Of a DNA stretch of 64,000 nt, positions 2,709-61,403 are shown piece after piece. The stretch is from a phage. The translations under genes were made by a program, and so were the position numbers. Under the pieces are notes generated by a model. It worked only from the letters and a program-made list of their open reading frames with translations, was not told where the DNA came from and made no database searches. The stretch's first letter is position 1. Each line of letters starts with the position of its first letter. The stretch lies in the sequence record PZ347661.1. One strand, written 5' to 3'.

Positions 2709-3884
2709 ATGAACCAATTTCCTCAGCACACACTTAGTGATGAACAACTCATGCGTGAGTATGACCGTATTCAGGCCCAAGCCTTCCTGGGCAAGTCTGC
2801 TGCGTTCTTTGGTTCATTACTGTGTAGTCTTAAATTCTCATGGAAACGTGAGGATTGTCCCACTGCATGTACTGATGGGATAGAACTTCATTTCAACCCA
2901 GACTTCTTTATCTGGATGTGTCCAGATGTAAGAGAAACAGTATTAATGCACGAACTATGGCATGTAGCATATCTACATGACATCCGTCGTGGAAGCCGTG
3001 ACCCGGAAGTCTGGAACCAGGCATGTGACCACTTCATTAACCTTCAGTTAGAAGAGGATGGTTACAAGTTCACTGGTATCGACAAGGGCATTTGCAAAGA
3101 CCCTAAATATAAAGATTGGGTCGAAGAAGACATCTACGATGACCTGATGAAGAACCCTCAGAAAAGGCAGAAGCCGTCAGGGGGTGCTGGAGCAGGTCTT
3201 GCTGGCGACATGAAATCCCCTACTTCGGGGCAGTCCCAGGGTGCTGTCGTCAACAACGTAGTACGTGCAATGCAGAGCCAGAAGATGGCTGGTGGACAGA
3301 TGCCCGGTAAGGGTGCTGGTCGTATGGAAGAGGTTATTACCCAATTCCTTAAACCAGTAGTTCCCTGGCAGGAAGTTCTGATAAACTTCTTTACCGACAT
3401 TGATGACACCCATTATACGTGGGCCAGACCTAATCGTCGTTACACTGACATCTATCTACCTTCCATGGAAGATGATGAAGGACGCTTACGACACTTAGCC
3501 TACTTTGAGGATGTATCTGGTTCCATTAGTAGTGATGACTCTCTGCGTTTTAACTCAGAGGTTGCTTACGTTAAGAGCCAATTCAATCCTAAGAAGATGT
3601 CCTTAATTACCTTCGACGATGTTATCCAGGAAGAAATAGACATCACTGAAGAAGATACTTTCGAAGAGATTAAGATTACTGGTCGTGGTGGTACAAACCT
3701 GGAACCAGTACGCGAATGGATTATTAAGAATAAGCCAACCGCTGCAATCATATTCTCCGATATGTATGTTCGCCCAATGGAAGAATTACCATTTGATATC
3801 CCCATCATCTGGTGTGTTCTGAATAATCCCAATGCTACCGTACCTTTTGGGGAGGTAGTTCATATCCCTAAAGGAATGAAATAA
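2709..3884 (+). CDS. VWA-like protein with N-terminal HExxH (putative metallopeptidase-like) domain
   Basis: HELWH motif near N-terminus, Gly-rich linker, C-terminal VWA-like region; directly follows the MoxR ATPase; start moved to ATG 2709 to avoid overlap. Confidence 0.55.
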   Translation: MNQFPQHTLSDEQLMREYDRIQAQAFLGKSAAFFGSLLCSLKFSWKREDCPTACTDGIELHFNPDFFIWMCPDVRETVLMHELWHVAYLHDIRRGSRDPEVWNQACDHFINLQLEEDGYKFTGIDKGICKDPKYKDWVEEDIYDDLMKNPQKRQKPSGGAGAGLAGDMKSPTSGQSQGAVVNNVVRAMQSQKMAGGQMPGKGAGRMEEVITQFLKPVVPWQEVLINFFTDIDDTHYTWARPNRRYTDIYLPSMEDDEGRLRHLAYFEDVSGSISSDDSLRFNSEVAYVKSQFNPKKMSLITFDDVIQEEIDITEEDTFEEIKITGRGGTNLEPVREWIIKNKPTAAIIFSDMYVRPMEELPFDIPIIWCVLNNPNATVPFGEVVHIPKGMK

Positions 3885-4609: not shown

Positions 4610-4682
4610 GTAGCTGCCTAAATAGCCCAACATAGTTGGGCTATTTGTGAAGAAACTAACTCAACCTCACATAGGAACCATC

Positions 4683-4925: not shown

Positions 4926-4997
4926 CTAATCGTAATAGTCTCATGAGGCTATTACTGGAAGTTACTTCCAGCTCATTGCTTATCCATCTCCTAATCC

Positions 4998-51403: not shown

Positions 51404-51910
51404 TTATTCCTGTTCAAAAAGTTTACGGTCAGCCTGAATCTGTTTACCCAACTCAATTAGTTGGCTGTCACGGAGTCTAACAGTTGCCCTGAGTTCTTCA
51501 ACCAAACGTCTGCCTTCTTCAAGACTGTTGTCGAGTCTGGCTGCATGGCTTGCAAGACTTCTGCACTCAAAGGTTCCGGCTTCGGCTTTACGTTTATATA
51601 CCGATGCTCGTCTTTCAGACTGTTGCATCCGGCTGTCGTAATCACTGCTAACGCGAGCAAGCTCGCTTGCGTAATTACTCTCAGCCGTCTGCAACCGGGA
51701 AGTGAGTAACCCGACTTCATAACTATGGTTTCTTTGGAGAGCATTGTATTTGTCCTGTAATTTTTGTGTTGCCTTTTGATCTTCAATCTTTTGGTCATCC
51801 CACTTCTTTTGAACAGTAGACTGTCCATTGGAATTACCCCAAAAGTAAATGGTGGCCCCTAGGACCACCACCAGAAGATAAGGCCAACCTTTAGAGATTA
51901 GCATCTTCAT
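51404..51910 (-). CDS. i-spanin (Rz-like)
   Basis: N-terminal TM helix [16 protein letters not shown] then long coiled-coil periplasmic domain; downstream of endolysin; contains embedded +1-frame lipoprotein ORF. Confidence 0.5.
51457..51720 (-). CDS. o-spanin (Rz1-like lipoprotein) embedded in i-spanin gene
   Basis: Signal peptide with lipobox-like ...[12 protein letters not shown], short Pro-rich mature region; wholly inside the Rz-like ORF in another frame. Confidence 0.45.
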   Translation of the reverse strand: MKSGYSLPGCRRLRVITQASLLALAVITTAGCNSLKDEHRYINVKPKPEPLSAEVLQAMQPDSTTVLKKADVWLKNSGQLLDSVTAN

Positions 51911-52526
51911 TACATGCCTCCAGTGGCACATTGCCTATTCGGTTAGCTACCCAACCATACGTAAAGTCTGGCATGTTTAATGAGGTGTAGTGGTTCAGTT
52001 GTTTGGCATCAAGTAACTTAATCATTACCTGACATGCTGCAACTTTGCCTCGTTTTTTCTGCAATGCTTTATATGCATTAACAGTACTTGTACCGACTTT
52101 ACCATCAACCTGTATTTTAGGGTAGTCTTTGCCATTGCGAGACATTTCATTAAGAGATAACTGCAACCATTTAGCAGGACGAGTTACACCAGTGTTAACA
52201 CCAGCATCTACCAGCTTGTGTGTTACAGCAGGAGATATATCAGCGAAGGCTACGAAGTTAGGCTTAAGTACGTAGTCATCAATGTATATCTCAGCAGCCA
52301 TCTCTTTAGATAAACCTTTCATAGAACCATCCCAACCATACTCAGTAGCCAGAACTTCTTTATGAGATTTAGCTACAGATTGGGTAATACCATAATTAGT
52401 TTCCCCACCTGGGTCACGAGGATTGTTTACATATCCCCCTTCCATATAGAACACTGCCCCCAGGATAGCAGCGACAACTCCTCCCACTGCACCACCTTTC
52501 GCAGCAAGTTTCTGTTTAGCTTTCAT
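51891..52526 (-). CDS. GH108-family N-acetylmuramidase endolysin with N-terminal SAR-like segment
   Basis: EGGYVNNPRDPGGETNYGIT motif of the GH108 family; Gly/Ala-rich N-terminal hydrophobic stretch GGAVGGVVAAILGAVFYM. Confidence 0.75.
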   Translation of the reverse strand: MKAKQKLAAKGGAVGGVVAAILGAVFYMEGGYVNNPRDPGGETNYGITQSVAKSHKEVLATEYGWDGSMKGLSKEMAAEIYIDDYVLKPNFVAFADISPAVTHKLVDAGVNTGVTRPAKWLQLSLNEMSRNGKDYPKIQVDGKVGTSTVNAYKALQKKRGKVAACQVMIKLLDAKQLNHYTSLNMPDFTYGWVANRIGNVPLEACNEDANL

Positions 52527-52776
52527 GTGAATCTTCCTTTGGTCGGAATCGTATTAATCTGCCTACGATGTTTAAGGCAAACAGTGCAATTGCAATATTG
52601 GAACCATGGGGAATATCTTCCAGGATGTGACGAGGTAATCCTGTCAGCATTGGTTGAATGATATCTATGGCAGAAAACATAATTAACCCAAAAGTACTAA
52701 TCTGAATGGATGCCCACTTCCAGCATCTTTTCCAATTAGGTACTAACTCAATCTTTCTTCTTAACCTGCGAACCAT
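52516..52776 (-). CDS. holin-like two-TM membrane protein
   Basis: Two hydrophobic helices (ISTFGLIMFSAIDII, IAIALFALNIVGRLI), immediately upstream of endolysin. Confidence 0.45.
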   Translation of the reverse strand: MVRRLRRKIELVPNWKRCWKWASIQISTFGLIMFSAIDIIQPMLTGLPRHILEDIPHGSNIAIALFALNIVGRLIRFRPKEDSHES

Positions 52777-53090
52777 GCGAATATCTCCCGTCTTGCAGCA
52801 GCCAATACACCAATGATTGCACCTGCCCCAGCCCACACCCACTTACCAAAAATCCCAGCACCAACAACTTTATGTTTAATGGTAATGAACTCTTCAATAG
52901 TAGGTTCATTCTTAGCTAAACTATCCTCCACGTTTTTCAGTCTATTACCTATGTCATTGATTGAATCCCGTAGCTCCACCAGAGTTTCCTCCAGTTTCTC
53001 ACGATCCTGTCTTTCTCTTGTCTGGTTCTCAAACAGAGTCTTCAATCGTTCCTCCAGCCTGACTAGGAGTAGTTCACCCGATTCATTCAT
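52761..53090 (-). CDS. membrane-anchored coiled-coil protein (holin/antiholin candidate)
   Basis: Charged helical N-terminus, C-terminal TM VVGAGIFGKWVWAGAGAIIGVLAAA; first gene of the lysis cluster. Confidence 0.4.
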   Translation of the reverse strand: MNESGELLLVRLEERLKTLFENQTRERQDREKLEETLVELRDSINDIGNRLKNVEDSLAKNEPTIEEFITIKHKVVGAGIFGKWVWAGAGAIIGVLAAARREIFAWFAG

Positions 53091-53324
53091 AATATTACCG
53101 TAGTTGTGTAGTTAGAATCCCCAATAGGGTCATATCATAAGATGACTCATAGATAATACTTAGTATGATGAGGTACATCCAGACATAGTGTCTGGTATCA
53201 ACACATGGTAGATAGCGTTCAGTTGGGTATGTTTAATATCTCAAGGCAAGTAATTACCTTAACAGCAGTATCAGTTAGGGTAATGCAAACAGTGAACTCT
53301 ATATAAAAAGTATCATTAGTAGGT

Positions 53325-53354
53325 AAAACTAACCCCGCCGAAGCGGGGTTTTTG
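53325..53354. terminator. rho-independent terminator
   Basis: AACCCCGC-cgaa-GCGGGGTT with T-runs on both sides; directly after the 699-aa tailspike gene. Confidence 0.65.
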
Positions 53355-55454
53355 TTATGGCATTCTTATGATTCCAGTTATGTTATTAGGGGTTGCTGGC
53401 AAGGCTGTACCGCTGAATGTCAACTTCAAGAGTCCACCATTATTTGACGGTGTTATAGTTAAATTAGGTGCCGTCCCGTCTAAGTAAACAGCATCGTTAT
53501 ATACGCGACCCCGCACCCGAATACCTTCAACCGTCAAGTTGATTAGAACAATCATATGCGGTCTAAAAGTAATGGCGGTATAGATAGCCCGGGTCGCAAC
53601 ACCCTCATTAATCTGAGAGCAGAACGGTATAGTTGTGGAAGCATCACCTTGGTCACCACTAAACGGCAAATCTACTTTACCGCCGGTGAAGTTCTGACGT
53701 GCAATGAAATTACCAGACCCATCAAGCGCCACAGCAGGAAATACTATTTTCTCGAAACCAGAGAATGTCCACCCAGACGGAACCCCCGGCAGAGTGTTAA
53801 CCGATACCGCAGCAGGAGGAATGTTGACCGTTAAGCCATTCAGGTTTCCAGCATCAGTATTGAATTTGGTGGTGCAGTTCAGGAAGTACGTATTCTCACC
53901 GAATACACCAGAGCTTAACTGGTTGCCGTAGAAACAAGTATTTACGTTGTTAAAGAATCCACCAATTTTAACGGCTCTATGCGCTTGCGCCGCACCCATG
54001 TCAATGGCTACATCGGTGATATCTTCGTAGTAACCGTAAATTTCCAACGGCATTACTTCCCCGGTGAATACTAGCCCTTTATCACAGCTTTCAGCGTTCA
54101 CGAATTCAAGGCGCTGCCCGTTTATAGCGCCGTCAAAACGATACGCAAGTTTGCGCTGTGTAACGTTAATGTTATGGATGTTCTGCGAGTTGATATAGGT
54201 ATCAAACAAGAACGCCGGTTGTGTATGCGTTTTTGGTGCCGTCAGGTTTCGGGAAGTCATAGTATGGAACGCACCATACCAGCTTGACTTAGCAATTAGG
54301 TTTTGAGCACAATCCACGAACGTAATAGAGTGTAATTCGCTTGCCTCTGCAAAGTTCCGTACGCTAAAACCAATCCCTGCATTTCTTACGATGAAATTTC
54401 TAATCTTGGTTCCAGTTACGCGATAAGTATTATCTGCGAGGGCCACATTGCTCTCTAACACCCCTGTTGATGGGTTAAACCCACCAGTAACAAACATAGT
54501 ATTTGTACCATTTCCGACTAGTTCAGCGCCGTTCAGGTCGATGTCTACCATGGCAGGAATGATGATGGGGGAGCTGCCGATTACGTTAAATCGACCACCC
54601 CTTGATGATACTTTGCGGATGCCTTGTTTCATAGCATCAGCGTAGACATCGCCACTTATTCCATTACCAGCAGCTTTAACTGCATCAGCAATAGCTTGTG
54701 TATTATCCGTTGCCGTTGTATATGCGCCAAAATCCTCTATATACAGGATACTGCATTCTCGAATCCAACGACCAGGACCGGATATGGCGGTTGGTTTGAT
54801 GACCACACCATTGTCATCATCCCTGGTATTCGCTGAATCCCATACAAAAATACCACCACCGCCGGATACGCCAGTGCGGTAAGCTTTAACCTGAATTCGC
54901 TGATTAGAAACACTACCGGTAACTCCGCGAAGCGCAACAATCGAATCTACGGCACCTACTAACTTAAGACCATCCTGCGCGGATAAATCAGTTCGTAATG
55001 TTGGGTCAGTCTGCGGCTTCCAGTCAGCGTTACCAACTGGGTTAGTTCCTGAGGGAATAGTTACAGGTAAAGAACCTAAGTAGGTGTAACCCATGCCATT
55101 GTGAAATAATAATTCATTTCTGGTATTTACAACTAAACCAGTAACAAACGAGTCGGACAGGCTTACGAATTCTCTACGTGTAGCAGCCAGTTCACCTAAA
55201 TCAATAGTACCAGCTGAATGAACCAGGACTGCTTGCTCACTGAGACTTACAGCAGTGGTTCCTACTGGGAGTACGGGTAATGAGTAAGCACGTTGAGTAG
55301 TCTTATCATAAATAACTTTGTAACCACCTAAGTCTACACCTACAGAAAAGTAGACTACTTCATTCTGCTTAACACCAAACTTACGGGCAATGGCCTGCTT
55401 ATTGGTAAGAATACCAGTAGAACCTCTACCACCTTGTGAGAACATCTCGTTCAT
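53355..55454 (-). CDS. tailspike / tail fiber with beta-helix (pectate-lyase-like) domain
   Basis: 699 aa; IEDFGAYTTATDNTQAIADAV resembles the N-terminal cap motif of right-handed beta-helix depolymerases. Confidence 0.55.
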   Translation of the reverse strand: MNEMFSQGGRGSTGILTNKQAIARKFGVKQNEVVYFSVGVDLGGYKVIYDKTTQRAYSLPVLPVGTTAVSLSEQAVLVHSAGTIDLGELAATRREFVSLSDSFVTGLVVNTRNELLFHNGMGYTYLGSLPVTIPSGTNPVGNADWKPQTDPTLRTDLSAQDGLKLVGAVDSIVALRGVTGSVSNQRIQVKAYRTGVSGGGGIFVWDSANTRDDDNGVVIKPTAISGPGRWIRECSILYIEDFGAYTTATDNTQAIADAVKAAGNGISGDVYADAMKQGIRKVSSRGGRFNVIGSSPIIIPAMVDIDLNGAELVGNGTNTMFVTGGFNPSTGVLESNVALADNTYRVTGTKIRNFIVRNAGIGFSVRNFAEASELHSITFVDCAQNLIAKSSWYGAFHTMTSRNLTAPKTHTQPAFLFDTYINSQNIHNINVTQRKLAYRFDGAINGQRLEFVNAESCDKGLVFTGEVMPLEIYGYYEDITDVAIDMGAAQAHRAVKIGGFFNNVNTCFYGNQLSSGVFGENTYFLNCTTKFNTDAGNLNGLTVNIPPAAVSVNTLPGVPSGWTFSGFEKIVFPAVALDGSGNFIARQNFTGGKVDLPFSGDQGDASTTIPFCSQINEGVATRAIYTAITFRPHMIVLINLTVEGIRVRGRVYNDAVYLDGTAPNLTITPSNNGGLLKLTFSGTALPATPNNITGIIRMP

Positions 55455-55511: not shown

Positions 55512-58253
55512 CTACATACGCTGAATACGCCATCTACGCGTAGTGCTGGATATACCAGATTCTACATATACACCAGTGAGGGTATATAGGGTATTACCTA
55601 ATCGTGTAGCATCAGCAACTGCATGAGAGATGGTATATGCAACACTATCAGTAGCAGCATCATACCCATTGACTGTAACTGTAAATGCAGGAGTTGCCAG
55701 TAAAGTTGCACCACTACTAGCTTCGCCAATGACTTTAGTTACTAGTACGCCAGTACCCGCTGTACTAGCCTCTGGTAGCGTAATACCTATTAAATATTGT
55801 TCATTACCTTGTATATAGTTTTCAGATACTGCTTTCGTTAAAGCATTAATCTGTAGGTGCATCATACGGGGGTTGCCACTACCTGCCGGGATATAAACCT
55901 TAAATACAGCAACAGGAGAAGTAGATGCATGGTTCTTAAAGTTTACCATTGCGGGGATAATAGAGTTCCAATCCCTAACATCCATTGGGCGTGCTTCTAC
56001 ATACATAGATGCTGTGTGCATTGCACTCCCATCGTAATCCCCAGTTCTTCCATAATCTGGTGCATCCGAGAATGTACCTAAGTATCTGTATTTAGATAAG
56101 ACTATCTTAGTGCCATTACCTTGTAGTGAAACGTTGGGTGAGTTAGACCATCCGCCATTAATATAAATAGTAATATTCTTACCTAGTGAGCTGACTGTGT
56201 TTCCTAAACGGAACATGCAATCGTTACAGGTTATTACCTGGTTTACAGTCTGCCCTTCTACCAAATATGGATAAGACGAGGATTCTACATCCCCCTCGAT
56301 ATAGCAAGAATTGAGGGTAAACGTGTTTACCGATGCCATAGTAGCAAAATAAATACGAGACTGTCCTTTGGTTTCAAAAGAACACTCGTTCCACGTTAAC
56401 ACCTGAGTTGGGCAGTGCACTGATACCGCATGGGTCTGTTGCTCTGCCATCCATATATTTGAGAAGTTAACGTTGTTAACTTCCTCTGTTGGTTGATTGT
56501 AGCCAATTCGGATATGTGATCCTGTTAGCACCACAGATGAACTACTACGACGGAAACGGATATTTTGGTACACGGAATACCAACATTTATCAATATCAAT
56601 GCCGTAGTGGAAGTCTTCAAGTATTGCGTCTACAACCCCACCATTATCCGTGTTATACGTACTAGAAATGCCCCTAAGGTTGGCATTACTCGCATTCCCT
56701 TTTAAGCGTAGTGTTTCTAGACGTGCTCCAAATCCTACCAGGGTTACTAAATATCCTGAATTGGTATTATTCGAGGCGTCGATTATTGTGAATAAATCTT
56801 CCCCGCAAATAGTGGTCCCACTCGGCAGAGTGATACCCGCCCCATTGTAGATATATGTACCATGCGGTAAGTACAGTCTACGGAAGTTAGTGACTAAACT
56901 GGTTCCTGTTAATGCTGCACACGCGGCGTCGATGGCATTGGTGTCATCTGTTACACCGTCCCCTTTTGCACCCCAATCCTTAACACTTATATAATCTGCG
57001 TTGAAATCATGTTGTGTACGCATTACAGCAGTAATGTGATTAACCTTGGTGCCAATATGCCCACTACCACTTTCACTTCCTAATCGGTTTTCTAAGTCAG
57101 AAACCTGGGCACTGGGAACGGGAACCAATGCTACGGTAATATTGCCTGGATTATAAGTTAGCTGCCCATTGTTTACAGAGTCGATGTAAACGTTGGTTGG
57201 TAACGTAGGTAACCCATATGCCTTCTGTTCACTAACAGAATAAATAATCTTCTTACCATTAAGTACTTGGGAATTATCCGTACTAAGGATTACCTCAGAA
57301 TCTTTTACATTAGCAGCACGGGCAACTTCCTGAAGAGTATGGTCTGATGTTTCCAGTACCTGTGTCTCTCCGCCAATCTGAACAATCAGACGATCATTAG
57401 TTGCCAGTGGCTCAGTAAGAAGGATACGCTGGTTATCTGGGTCAGCAGTATATGACTCAGTAGTTAGTCCTTTATACAAACGAAGACCATTCTTATACAC
57501 AGCAGGAACAGACTGGAAGGTATAAGGAATAGCAATAACCTGCTCACCACCCACAGCAGCACCATTGTTGTATAACCAGTTAATCTGAACCCAGTCATTA
57601 ACGTTAGGGTTGTCTGGTACAGCAGGAACACCAGTCAGCAAGAATACAACTTCATCACCTTCTTCCAGAGGCTGAGCCAGAGTCACGGACAGATTCTCTA
57701 CGTTAAACTCAAAGCCACGACCTACATACTGCATGTCACCATTAATAATGATAAATGGTACACCTACTGTACCATCCGGTACGTTGATTGTGGTTTCCCC
57801 ACCAGTAGCAGAACCATTGCTATATACCCAAGGAATGTATGCACCCTCACCAGAGGAAGTACCACCTCCATTGGAACCGGTAGTAGCAACAGTAATCCAC
57901 GAACCAGTTGATTCTGGGTCATCTGGGATAATACCGGTACGATCACCTTCTACGTATAAGTAGTCAGTTACCTGACGGTCACCTGCACGGGAGAAGCCAT
58001 AAATACGTGCATACTTAGCTTTGGTTGTTAGAGCCTTAAGTTCTGCCTCAGACTGTACGCCAAGTACCATCCCATACTGATTCAAGAAGTCATAAATCAG
58101 TTTAAGGTTACCCAGGTTGCAGTACACAGTACGAACCACGTGGTAAGCATTACCAAGTAGTGCATCTACCATTGGGTCATTGGAACTGTTCTGGCAGTAA
58201 GGATTAGTCCAATCCTGATTTGCATCAAAGGGGGTATGTGCGTTCATCGCCAT
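55512..58253 (-). CDS. tailspike with pectate-lyase-superfamily beta-helix domain
   Basis: 913 aa; SVKDWGAKGDGVTDDTNAIDAACAAL is the classic beta-helix tailspike/depolymerase motif. Confidence 0.65.
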   Translation of the reverse strand: MAMNAHTPFDANQDWTNPYCQNSSNDPMVDALLGNAYHVVRTVYCNLGNLKLIYDFLNQYGMVLGVQSEAELKALTTKAKYARIYGFSRAGDRQVTDYLYVEGDRTGIIPDDPESTGSWITVATTGSNGGGTSSGEGAYIPWVYSNGSATGGETTINVPDGTVGVPFIIINGDMQYVGRGFEFNVENLSVTLAQPLEEGDEVVFLLTGVPAVPDNPNVNDWVQINWLYNNGAAVGGEQVIAIPYTFQSVPAVYKNGLRLYKGLTTESYTADPDNQRILLTEPLATNDRLIVQIGGETQVLETSDHTLQEVARAANVKDSEVILSTDNSQVLNGKKIIYSVSEQKAYGLPTLPTNVYIDSVNNGQLTYNPGNITVALVPVPSAQVSDLENRLGSESGSGHIGTKVNHITAVMRTQHDFNADYISVKDWGAKGDGVTDDTNAIDAACAALTGTSLVTNFRRLYLPHGTYIYNGAGITLPSGTTICGEDLFTIIDASNNTNSGYLVTLVGFGARLETLRLKGNASNANLRGISSTYNTDNGGVVDAILEDFHYGIDIDKCWYSVYQNIRFRRSSSSVVLTGSHIRIGYNQPTEEVNNVNFSNIWMAEQQTHAVSVHCPTQVLTWNECSFETKGQSRIYFATMASVNTFTLNSCYIEGDVESSSYPYLVEGQTVNQVITCNDCMFRLGNTVSSLGKNITIYINGGWSNSPNVSLQGNGTKIVLSKYRYLGTFSDAPDYGRTGDYDGSAMHTASMYVEARPMDVRDWNSIIPAMVNFKNHASTSPVAVFKVYIPAGSGNPRMMHLQINALTKAVSENYIQGNEQYLIGITLPEASTAGTGVLVTKVIGEASSGATLLATPAFTVTVNGYDAATDSVAYTISHAVADATRLGNTLYTLTGVYVESGISSTTRRWRIQRM

Positions 58254-61232: not shown

Positions 61233-61403
61233 ACTTATCTCGCTACAAAGTTATTTCTATTAAAGAAGATTTTTTTCTTGGGGTGAGTTACCCCTTGAAG
61301 AAACGATACCATACAGTTACACTTTAGTCATGATATAGAAAAAGTTCATGATACTAAATAGTATGTAATGTTCCGATGACCCTATTCCCAAAAGGAGTAA
61401 CCT

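Follow-up and report, generated by a model that had tools for sequence, protein, structure and literature searches.

A small hairpin upstream of the lysis cassette of a Gamaleyavirus coliphage as a possible vestige of the 5' stem-loop of a lost divergent gene

In the gap upstream of the lysis cassette of a Gamaleyavirus coliphage lies a small perfect hairpin that we tentatively read as the 5'-terminal stem-loop of a rightward orf14 mRNA, vestigial in the stretch of DNA analyzed here, a window of 64,000 nucleotides (sequence record PZ347661.1). Most likely, it is an element of an ordinary kind, the promoter-proximal stem-loop of a lost gene, and reveals no new mechanism. The phage is a G7C/Bp4-like and N4-related member of the Enquatrovirinae within the Schitoviridae with 82-95% identity to Gamaleyavirus genomes, and its late genes run leftward on the minus strand, comprising two tailspikes, a gp63-like gene, holin, muramidase, Rz with embedded Rz1, and portal. 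The lysis block opens with the gp63-like gene (52761-53090, minus strand; 109 aa, phrog_5211, function unknown), which is followed by a gene matching phrog_1356 (holin), the muramidase, and Rz/Rz1, where a 123-aa ORF (51457-51828) is nested out of frame in a 175-aa Rz-like gene (51404-51931) in the arrangement usual for these proteins. On the other side of the gap lie a gp63.1-like tailspike gene (53355-55454, minus strand; 699 aa) and a second tailspike gene (55512-58253, minus strand). The preliminary description had placed the hairpin in a gap of 260 nt upstream of the lysis cassette, bounded by a tailspike terminator and the only sizeable one of the late block, and this layout was borne out: the gap between the gp63-like gene and the tailspike measures 264 nt and is the largest of the leftward late block, all others being at most 85 nt long, and beyond the tailspike stop comes a terminator-like stem (53331-53350).

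The hairpin itself, CCAGACA-TAG-TGTCTGG, was correctly described as a perfect stem of 7 bp with a 3-nt loop, though its coordinates had been set one base too far left (53178-53194) and are 53179-53195. The stem has exactly seven pairs, the next pair outward being T/T, and folds as single-stranded DNA with -6.3 kcal/mol on the plus strand and -6.4 kcal/mol on the minus strand (z of about -3.2). Perfect hairpins of this 7/3 geometry are about 2.7-fold over-represented across the window, with 13 found against 4.8 +/- 2.2 in 200 dinucleotide-preserving shuffles, none of which reached 13; longer stems and loops of 4-5 nt are likewise above naive expectation. While the class is thus enriched as a whole, any single member still has a prior of roughly one in three of being noise. 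Three of the 13 are non-coding (those at 4625, 4955, and 53179), and simple arithmetic from the shuffle counts gives about 0.02 perfect 7/3 hairpins expected by chance in the 264-nt gap. The related motif CAGACA-N3-TGTCTG, searched with up to two mismatches, showed no enrichment in the window (seven matches against 3.55 +/- 1.84 expected), and its near-copies at 971 and 44540, both located within ORFs, were taken as chance. Among Rfam families searched at a permissive E-value, the best scores reached at most 18 bits against thresholds of at least 41, most of them on or around the terminator and none over the hairpin. We also rejected the hairpin as a Rho-independent terminator, given that a terminator scan did not report it and that it is followed by TATCAAC (plus strand) or ATGTACC (minus strand) without any T-run.

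Read from left to right, the gap comprises a conserved block in which two sigma-70-like -10 boxes stand back-to-back, then the hairpin, the 33 final codons of orf14, and a bidirectional terminator. The first of these, a divergent control block at 53091-53178 supported by its column conservation profile, extends from the gp63 start codon to the hairpin and is 78-99% identical to relatives. Thirty nucleotides upstream of the gp63 start it carries a small stem-loop of 3-4 pairs (53120-53130, CCCC-AAT-AGGG), whose counterparts are CCCC-TAT-GGGG in U1G and CCTT-AAT-AAGG in HK2, with two pairs changed on both sides; in the G7C group, CCC-ATA-GGG stands directly before the start codon. BLAST splits the gap in two, of which the left part (53091 to about 53202) is common only to Bp4-like Gamaleyaviruses and the right part (53204-53352) to Bp4-like phages and to non-coding DNA between the tailspike genes of Aglimvirinae. 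At 53205-53306 on the plus strand, the right part begins with the last 33 codons and stop of an orf14-family gene (MVDSVQLGMFNISRQVITLTAVSVRVMQTVNSI), a remnant that shares 85-88% identity with the C-terminal parts of Bp4 orf14 and pSb-1 gp17 and has no Shine-Dalgarno sequence ahead of it, so that the "intergenic gap" is largely a gene remnant. The deletion junction falls near 53203-53204, about 535 nt are missing compared with Bp4, and the remnant is the least conserved segment of the gap (83-89% identity to relatives).

Intact orf14 (Bp4 orf14, at 3125-3751 of locus L001, equivalent to pSb-1 gp17 and to phrog_17779) encodes a decoration-protein-like product of 208 aa on the plus strand. Bp4, pSb-1, nithesis, and UE-S5a possess the intact gene and carry the identical hairpin about 30 nt before its ATG, in the order hairpin, 10-11 nt, GAGG, 5 nt, ATG; in these four and in the related phages PD38, Uz-1, and UE-M3/M6/S5b, the two parts of the gap are about 535 nt apart, and the entire stretch codes for the 208-aa protein. 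It is convergent with the tailspike gene, and the bidirectional terminator is common to both. The N-terminus of the family (about 45 residues) is homologous to the 99-aa protein gp45 of Shigella phage B2 (PDB 9d82, E = 1.3e-7), a capsid decoration/head-fiber protein (PMC11654681), and to the neighboring 99-aa "head protein" (E = 4e-8), which in Ithacaviruses is encoded just upstream (1109-1408 and 1486-2121 of L031). The C-terminal ca. 150 residues of the family recur at the ends of Aeromonas phage collagen-like proteins and in Klebsiella podophages. Pfam returned nothing for orf14, and PHROGs only a family of unknown function. As judged from these homologies, orf14 is probably a dispensable late structural accessory, which would fit both a late host-polymerase promoter and frequent loss of the gene.

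A consensus scan of the control block detected a sigma-70-like promoter on the plus strand at 53142-53169 ("P_right"; -35 ATGACT, 16-nt spacer, -10 TATGAT; 9/12 matches), from which we infer a transcription start 6-8 nt past the -10 box, near 53175-53177 and 2-4 nt before the hairpin, which would then occupy about +3 to +19. Positions T1, A2, and T6 of this -10 box are kept in all 18 genomes compared (see below), and the 5 nt between it and the hairpin vary freely among them. The core of P_right, the 12-mer TTAGTATSATGA, has exactly two copies in the window, the second of which is found on the minus strand at 61346-61357, 114 nt ahead of the gene that opens the leftward late block, and marks a putative paralogous late-type promoter region; a local alignment of the gap (plus strand) with 61233-61403 (minus strand) scores 31, compared with a maximum of 28 in 300 shuffles. 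On the opposite strand, the -10-like hexamer TATTAT at 53153-53158 ("P_left") is the best candidate for the lysis-cassette promoter: GATAATACT is invariant in 18/18 Bp4-like genomes, and AGTATTATC is retained in G7C-like loci (L012-L017), which lack orf14. Probably, a separate minus-strand promoter drives the lysis cassette, with its -10 box (53158-53153) back-to-back with that of the plus strand; each -10 box sits within the spacer of the opposite promoter, and both are conserved. At the -35 position of P_left we find TGGATG (53181-53176), which has only 3/6 matches and overlaps the left arm of the hairpin, and relative to this predicted promoter the hairpin lies at about -33 to -49. A few nucleotides after the predicted minus-strand start, another stem-loop at 53134-53144 reads TCAT-AAG-ATGA in Bp4-like genomes and TCAGA-AGAG-TCTGA in loci L012-L017, and the lysis mRNA may therefore also begin with a 5' hairpin. 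Our search of the open literature returned no transcript map for any Gamaleyavirus and no N4 late-promoter sequences.

An argument for a link between the hairpin and orf14 comes from a comparison of 18 Bp4-like genomes, i.e., the window and 17 relatives, of which five carry a full-length and 13 a truncated orf14 locus. Ten of these 17 relatives carry the identical hairpin sequence. It is perfect wherever the locus is full-length (5/5: Bp4, nithesis, pSb-1, UE-S5a, and VTCCBPA_322, the last being counted here with its ORF annotated in two pieces). Among the 13 truncated loci, it is perfect in five (the window, ZQ2, ECBP1, PD205, and PE007) and degraded in eight: PW8 has one mismatch, a metagenomic contig (L036) has two changes in the right arm, St11Ph5 has lost the outermost pair at the junction, the junction of EC1-UPM falls within the right arm, U1G and PGN829.1 have the right arm replaced, HK2 combines one compensatory pair (C-G to T-A) with one adjacent mismatch, and PBM-3 has lost the hairpin. 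By our own arithmetic, which ignores phylogeny, the one-sided Fisher value for this association is about 0.03. All changes in the P_right hexamers likewise fall in genomes with truncated orf14. The same gp63/holin/lysin lysis cassette is kept in every genome, with gp63 coding sequences 92-95% identical (93-95% in the eight genomes with a degraded hairpin), and since the hairpin is lost or damaged while the cassette stays, the cassette does not need the hairpin. From the aligned sequences, then, the hairpin decays after orf14 loss. It had initially been proposed as a candidate late regulatory element; the region indeed looks regulatory in view of the invariant P_left -10 box and its retention in G7C-like loci, but the hairpin tracks the divergent orf14 and not the lysis cassette.

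Within the hairpin, conservation is much higher in the left arm and loop than in the right arm. Twelve collinear genomes show three singleton changes in its 17 columns, all of them in the right arm, and most columns of the flanks (5 nt before and 8 nt after) vary. The hairpin is invariant among close relatives, with no evidence of covariation, and is confined to the Bp4-like subgroup. At least five different rearrangement junctions lie within about 25 nt of it. Scanning metagenome and IMG/VR contigs with a conserved 18-mer added a single new relative (L036), the other matches being unrelated sequences that contain the 18-mer.

Taken as a model, the 264-nt gap would consist of a compact divergent control region and, after it, a decayed gene. 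P_right would start a plus-strand transcript just ahead of the hairpin, and the orf14 mRNA would present, in this order, a 5'-terminal stem-loop, the GAGG ribosome-binding site, and the ATG; the stem-loop would most likely shield the 5' end of this transcript against 5'-end-dependent decay or adjust its expression in some other way. An ancestral deletion of about 535 nt would have taken the ribosome-binding site together with the start codon and some 175 codons and left the promoter, hairpin, 33-codon remnant, and terminator, where the vestigial hairpin would at most head a non-coding plus-strand RNA of about 175 nt. RNA folding of the predicted transcripts of Bp4 and the window renders the hairpin as an independent 5' element with two unpaired 5' nucleotides. 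5'-terminal stem-loops are known to stabilize mRNA in the leaders of E. coli ompA and of T7 late transcripts, and by analogy the hairpin most likely works like these: it is a short perfect stem-loop predicted 2-4 nt from the 5' end and upstream of a late-gene ribosome-binding site, and its distribution, perfect with all five full-length orf14 loci and degraded with 8/13 truncated ones, shows the linkage to a downstream translated gene that a 5' stabilizer should have. It has no sequence relationship to these leaders, its position at a 5' end is a predicted one, and the downstream gene is gone in the window.

Several observations count against an orf14 leader, namely the five orf14-less genomes with a perfect hairpin, the compensatory pair in HK2, which has no orf14 either, and the distant orf14 homologs of Jgk1, Ithacavirus, and Triduovirus, upstream of which we found no equivalent hairpin. 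In addition, genomes that have lost the right arm still have the left one, suggesting a sequence-level role of the left arm, e.g., in the minus-strand promoter. If the model of a divergent control region followed by a decayed orf14 holds, the practical gains would be modest: the lysis-cassette promoter of G7C/Bp4-like therapeutic coliphages would be placed in an 88-nt conserved block, the "spacer" beside the exchangeable tailspike would be a decayed decoration-protein-like gene that could be removed or replaced, and the natural cassette of promoter, 5' stem-loop, and terminator could be reused for engineering G7C/Bp4-like phages.

Conservation of the left arm also bears on the possibility that the palindrome acts as DNA on the leftward lysis promoter, either as a site for a dimeric regulator that overlaps or lies upstream of the -35 position or as a cruciform that modulates promoter use. 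This would make the initial idea of a late regulatory element concrete, and we regard it as unlikely. The minus-strand -10 box that it would serve is the one found invariant in 18/18 genomes and in G7C-like loci, genomes that have neither orf14 nor the right arm retain the left arm CATCCAGACA, at least five independent rearrangement junctions fall in the interval from the loop to 10 nt beyond the hairpin as if the DNA leftward of them must stay, and a perfect 17-bp palindrome has the typical shape of an operator. However, the right arm is absent or damaged in 8/13 truncated-orf14 genomes with the same lysis cassette, G7C-like phages with the same -10 box have a terminator at the position of the -35 box and hairpin, and the -35 match is poor (3/6). 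We know of no operator consensus that could be recognized in the palindrome. What keeps this explanation alive is left-arm conservation and the clustering of junctions, though both are also expected if the left block must simply be kept.

It is similarly doubtful that the hairpin has no present function at all and represents an inverted repeat that arose by chance or hitch-hiked in a decaying region and owes its conservation only to close kinship. The ca. 4.8 perfect 7/3 hairpins expected per window by chance would allow for this, as would the lack of covariation among close relatives, the decay in several lineages, the missing hairpin upstream of distant orf14 homologs, and the poor conservation of the adjoining remnant (83-89%). 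Against it stand the merely ca. 0.02 such hairpins expected in the gap itself, the three singleton changes in 17 columns compared with the variable flanks in the 12 collinear genomes, and the fact that the hairpin is perfect wherever orf14 is full-length.

Far less probable is the idea that promoter, 5' hairpin, remnant, and terminator (about 53177-53352, plus strand) have been kept after orf14 loss as a structured non-coding RNA of about 175 nt, which, being convergent with the tailspike, could insulate the lysis cassette from read-through or time it, or alternatively that the hairpin belongs to a non-N4 class of hairpin promoters for isolated Gamaleyavirus genes. The predicted fold of the ca. 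175-nt plus-strand RNA has -49.1 kcal/mol (z = -3.7). Long-range pairing in a predicted plus-strand RNA of 180 nt was rejected as a structure because the spacer that it involves exists only in the window and in YX22/AV101 and therefore cannot be conserved in deletion-type relatives.

The bidirectional intrinsic terminator at 53331-53350, AACCCCGC-CGAA-GCGGGGTT, scores on both strands; it ends the tailspike transcript on the minus strand, as far as can be predicted, and would also end the P_right/orf14 transcript on the plus strand. Near-identical copies are found downstream of tailspike genes in Aglimvirinae phages and in more than 100 Salmonella phages, and the terminator with its flank (53324-53359) is 97-100% identical to non-coding DNA in more than 100 Salmonella phages of ca. 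45 kb, such that the right half of the gap is common to Gamaleyavirus, Aglimvirinae, and Salmonella phages. The body of the tailspike gene (53360-54400) has no near match in the phage collection. Between the tailspike genes of YX22, AV101, and SKML-39 (Aglimvirinae in the Ackermannviridae, ca. 150 kb), longer or shorter 3' remnants of orf14 stand with the same terminator (53205-53352 in the window; 2290-2670 in L026, 2280-2610 in L027, and 2190-2645 in L028). Tailspike cassettes appear to carry the orf14 pseudogene tail with them from one phage family to another. Together with its flank, the terminator corresponds to the "motif three" reported downstream of receptor-binding-protein genes (PMC10408124), but the hairpin lies outside this shared segment, and the Ackermannviridae copies, which match from 53204 onward, do not contain it.

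The hairpin could also mark a hotspot of recombination or deletion at the border of the exchangeable tailspike module, which we consider quite improbable. It would account for the junctions (at least five different ones within about 25 nt) and for the DNA right of the hairpin being common to Ackermannviridae tailspike loci, and recombination hotspots have been suggested to lie in the conserved sequences that flank receptor-binding genes (PMC10408124). Nevertheless, clustering is expected anyway since only about 40 nt separate a promoter block that must be kept from a dispensable orf14, and the type A junction, which is the most frequent, falls 8-10 nt away from the hairpin. A stem of 7 bp is also short for structure-specific cleavage or slippage.

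In N4, virion-polymerase promoters have stems of 5-7 bp with 3-nt loops and are confined to the left, first-injected genome end upstream of early genes (PMC4496689). The middle promoters of phage LUZ7, mapped by ONT-cappable-seq, have stems of at least 6 bp and loops of 3-4 nt about 15 bp upstream of the start, and those of N4 are sequence motifs, not hairpins (PMC9163698). The window hairpin has a geometry that fits both N4 and LUZ7 hairpins, belongs to an N4-like phage of the same family as N4 (Schitoviridae, Enquatrovirinae), and could extrude from supercoiled DNA, so a single-stranded DNA hairpin promoter for a phage-encoded RNA polymerase, of the N4 early or LUZ7 middle type, could be imagined to drive orf14 rightward or the lysis genes leftward. 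N4-type promoters have a purine at the loop center of the template and a purine start 11 nt downstream; read leftward, the loop center here is a purine (A), and counting to +11 gives a G start at 53176, whereas read rightward, it is a pyrimidine (T at -11), and +1 is T. Like the GC-rich heptamer centered at -11, the bases contacted in N4 (-8G, -9C, -10G, -11G, -12A) are absent, the leftward template reading -8C, -9A, -10T, -11A, -12G, whereas N4 promoters P1-P3, taken from the left end of N4, all carry GC-T[TC]C-GC on the non-template strand. The N4 core GCGRAGC matches the window at chance level and nowhere near the hairpin. Compared with N4 P1-P3, the hairpin moreover lies in the late region and is not conserved among relatives, many of which have lost the right arm; compared with LUZ7, whose hairpins are GC-rich and come from a distant genus, it has three G-C pairs in seven. 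We thus rejected an N4-type virion-polymerase promoter, with the conserved bases absent and the hairpin located inside the leftward late block instead of at the left end, and hold any hairpin promoter for a phage-encoded RNA polymerase to be the least credible explanation of all. Judged by G7C coordinates, some 8.7 kb of the genome precede the window, which therefore probably does not include the true early promoters.

The hairpin at 4955-4971, which the preliminary description had assigned to the same class, shares the geometry of that at 53179-53195, but the two sequences are unrelated (CTGGAAG-TTA-CTTCCAG as opposed to CCAGACA-TAG-TGTCTGG) and their depth of conservation differs. It is kept in G7C as TGGAAG-TTG-CTTCCA with six pairs and reshaped in Klebsiella phage KP8 to TGGAG-GTTA-CTCCA with five pairs and a 4-nt loop. 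In every case a (C)ATT(G/A)CTTA motif and a terminator come next, both of them conserved, and it is at this hairpin (query position 97) that several phages start to be homologous to the window. Given its retention in G7C and KP8, it is a stronger candidate than the hairpin at 53179 for a conserved element with a function. Among the rightward genes, hairpins at 738-754 (GTATCAT-TCA-ATGATAC) and 1571-1589 (TTGTGTAC-TCA-GTACACAA) have a TCA loop in common, the latter located 60 nt before a 350-aa ORF at 1649, and a perfect 12-bp stem with a 3-nt loop (AAATAGCCCAAC-ATA-GTTGGGCTATTT) occupies 4620-4646 in a 37-nt gap between rightward ORFs. In G7C-type phages without orf14 (L018-L021), the stretch from the tailspike terminator to gp63 contains a different 5-bp/3-nt hairpin, GACTG-AAA-CAGTC, about 55 nt ahead of gp63; chance alone often produces hairpins of this size, at about one per 600 nt.
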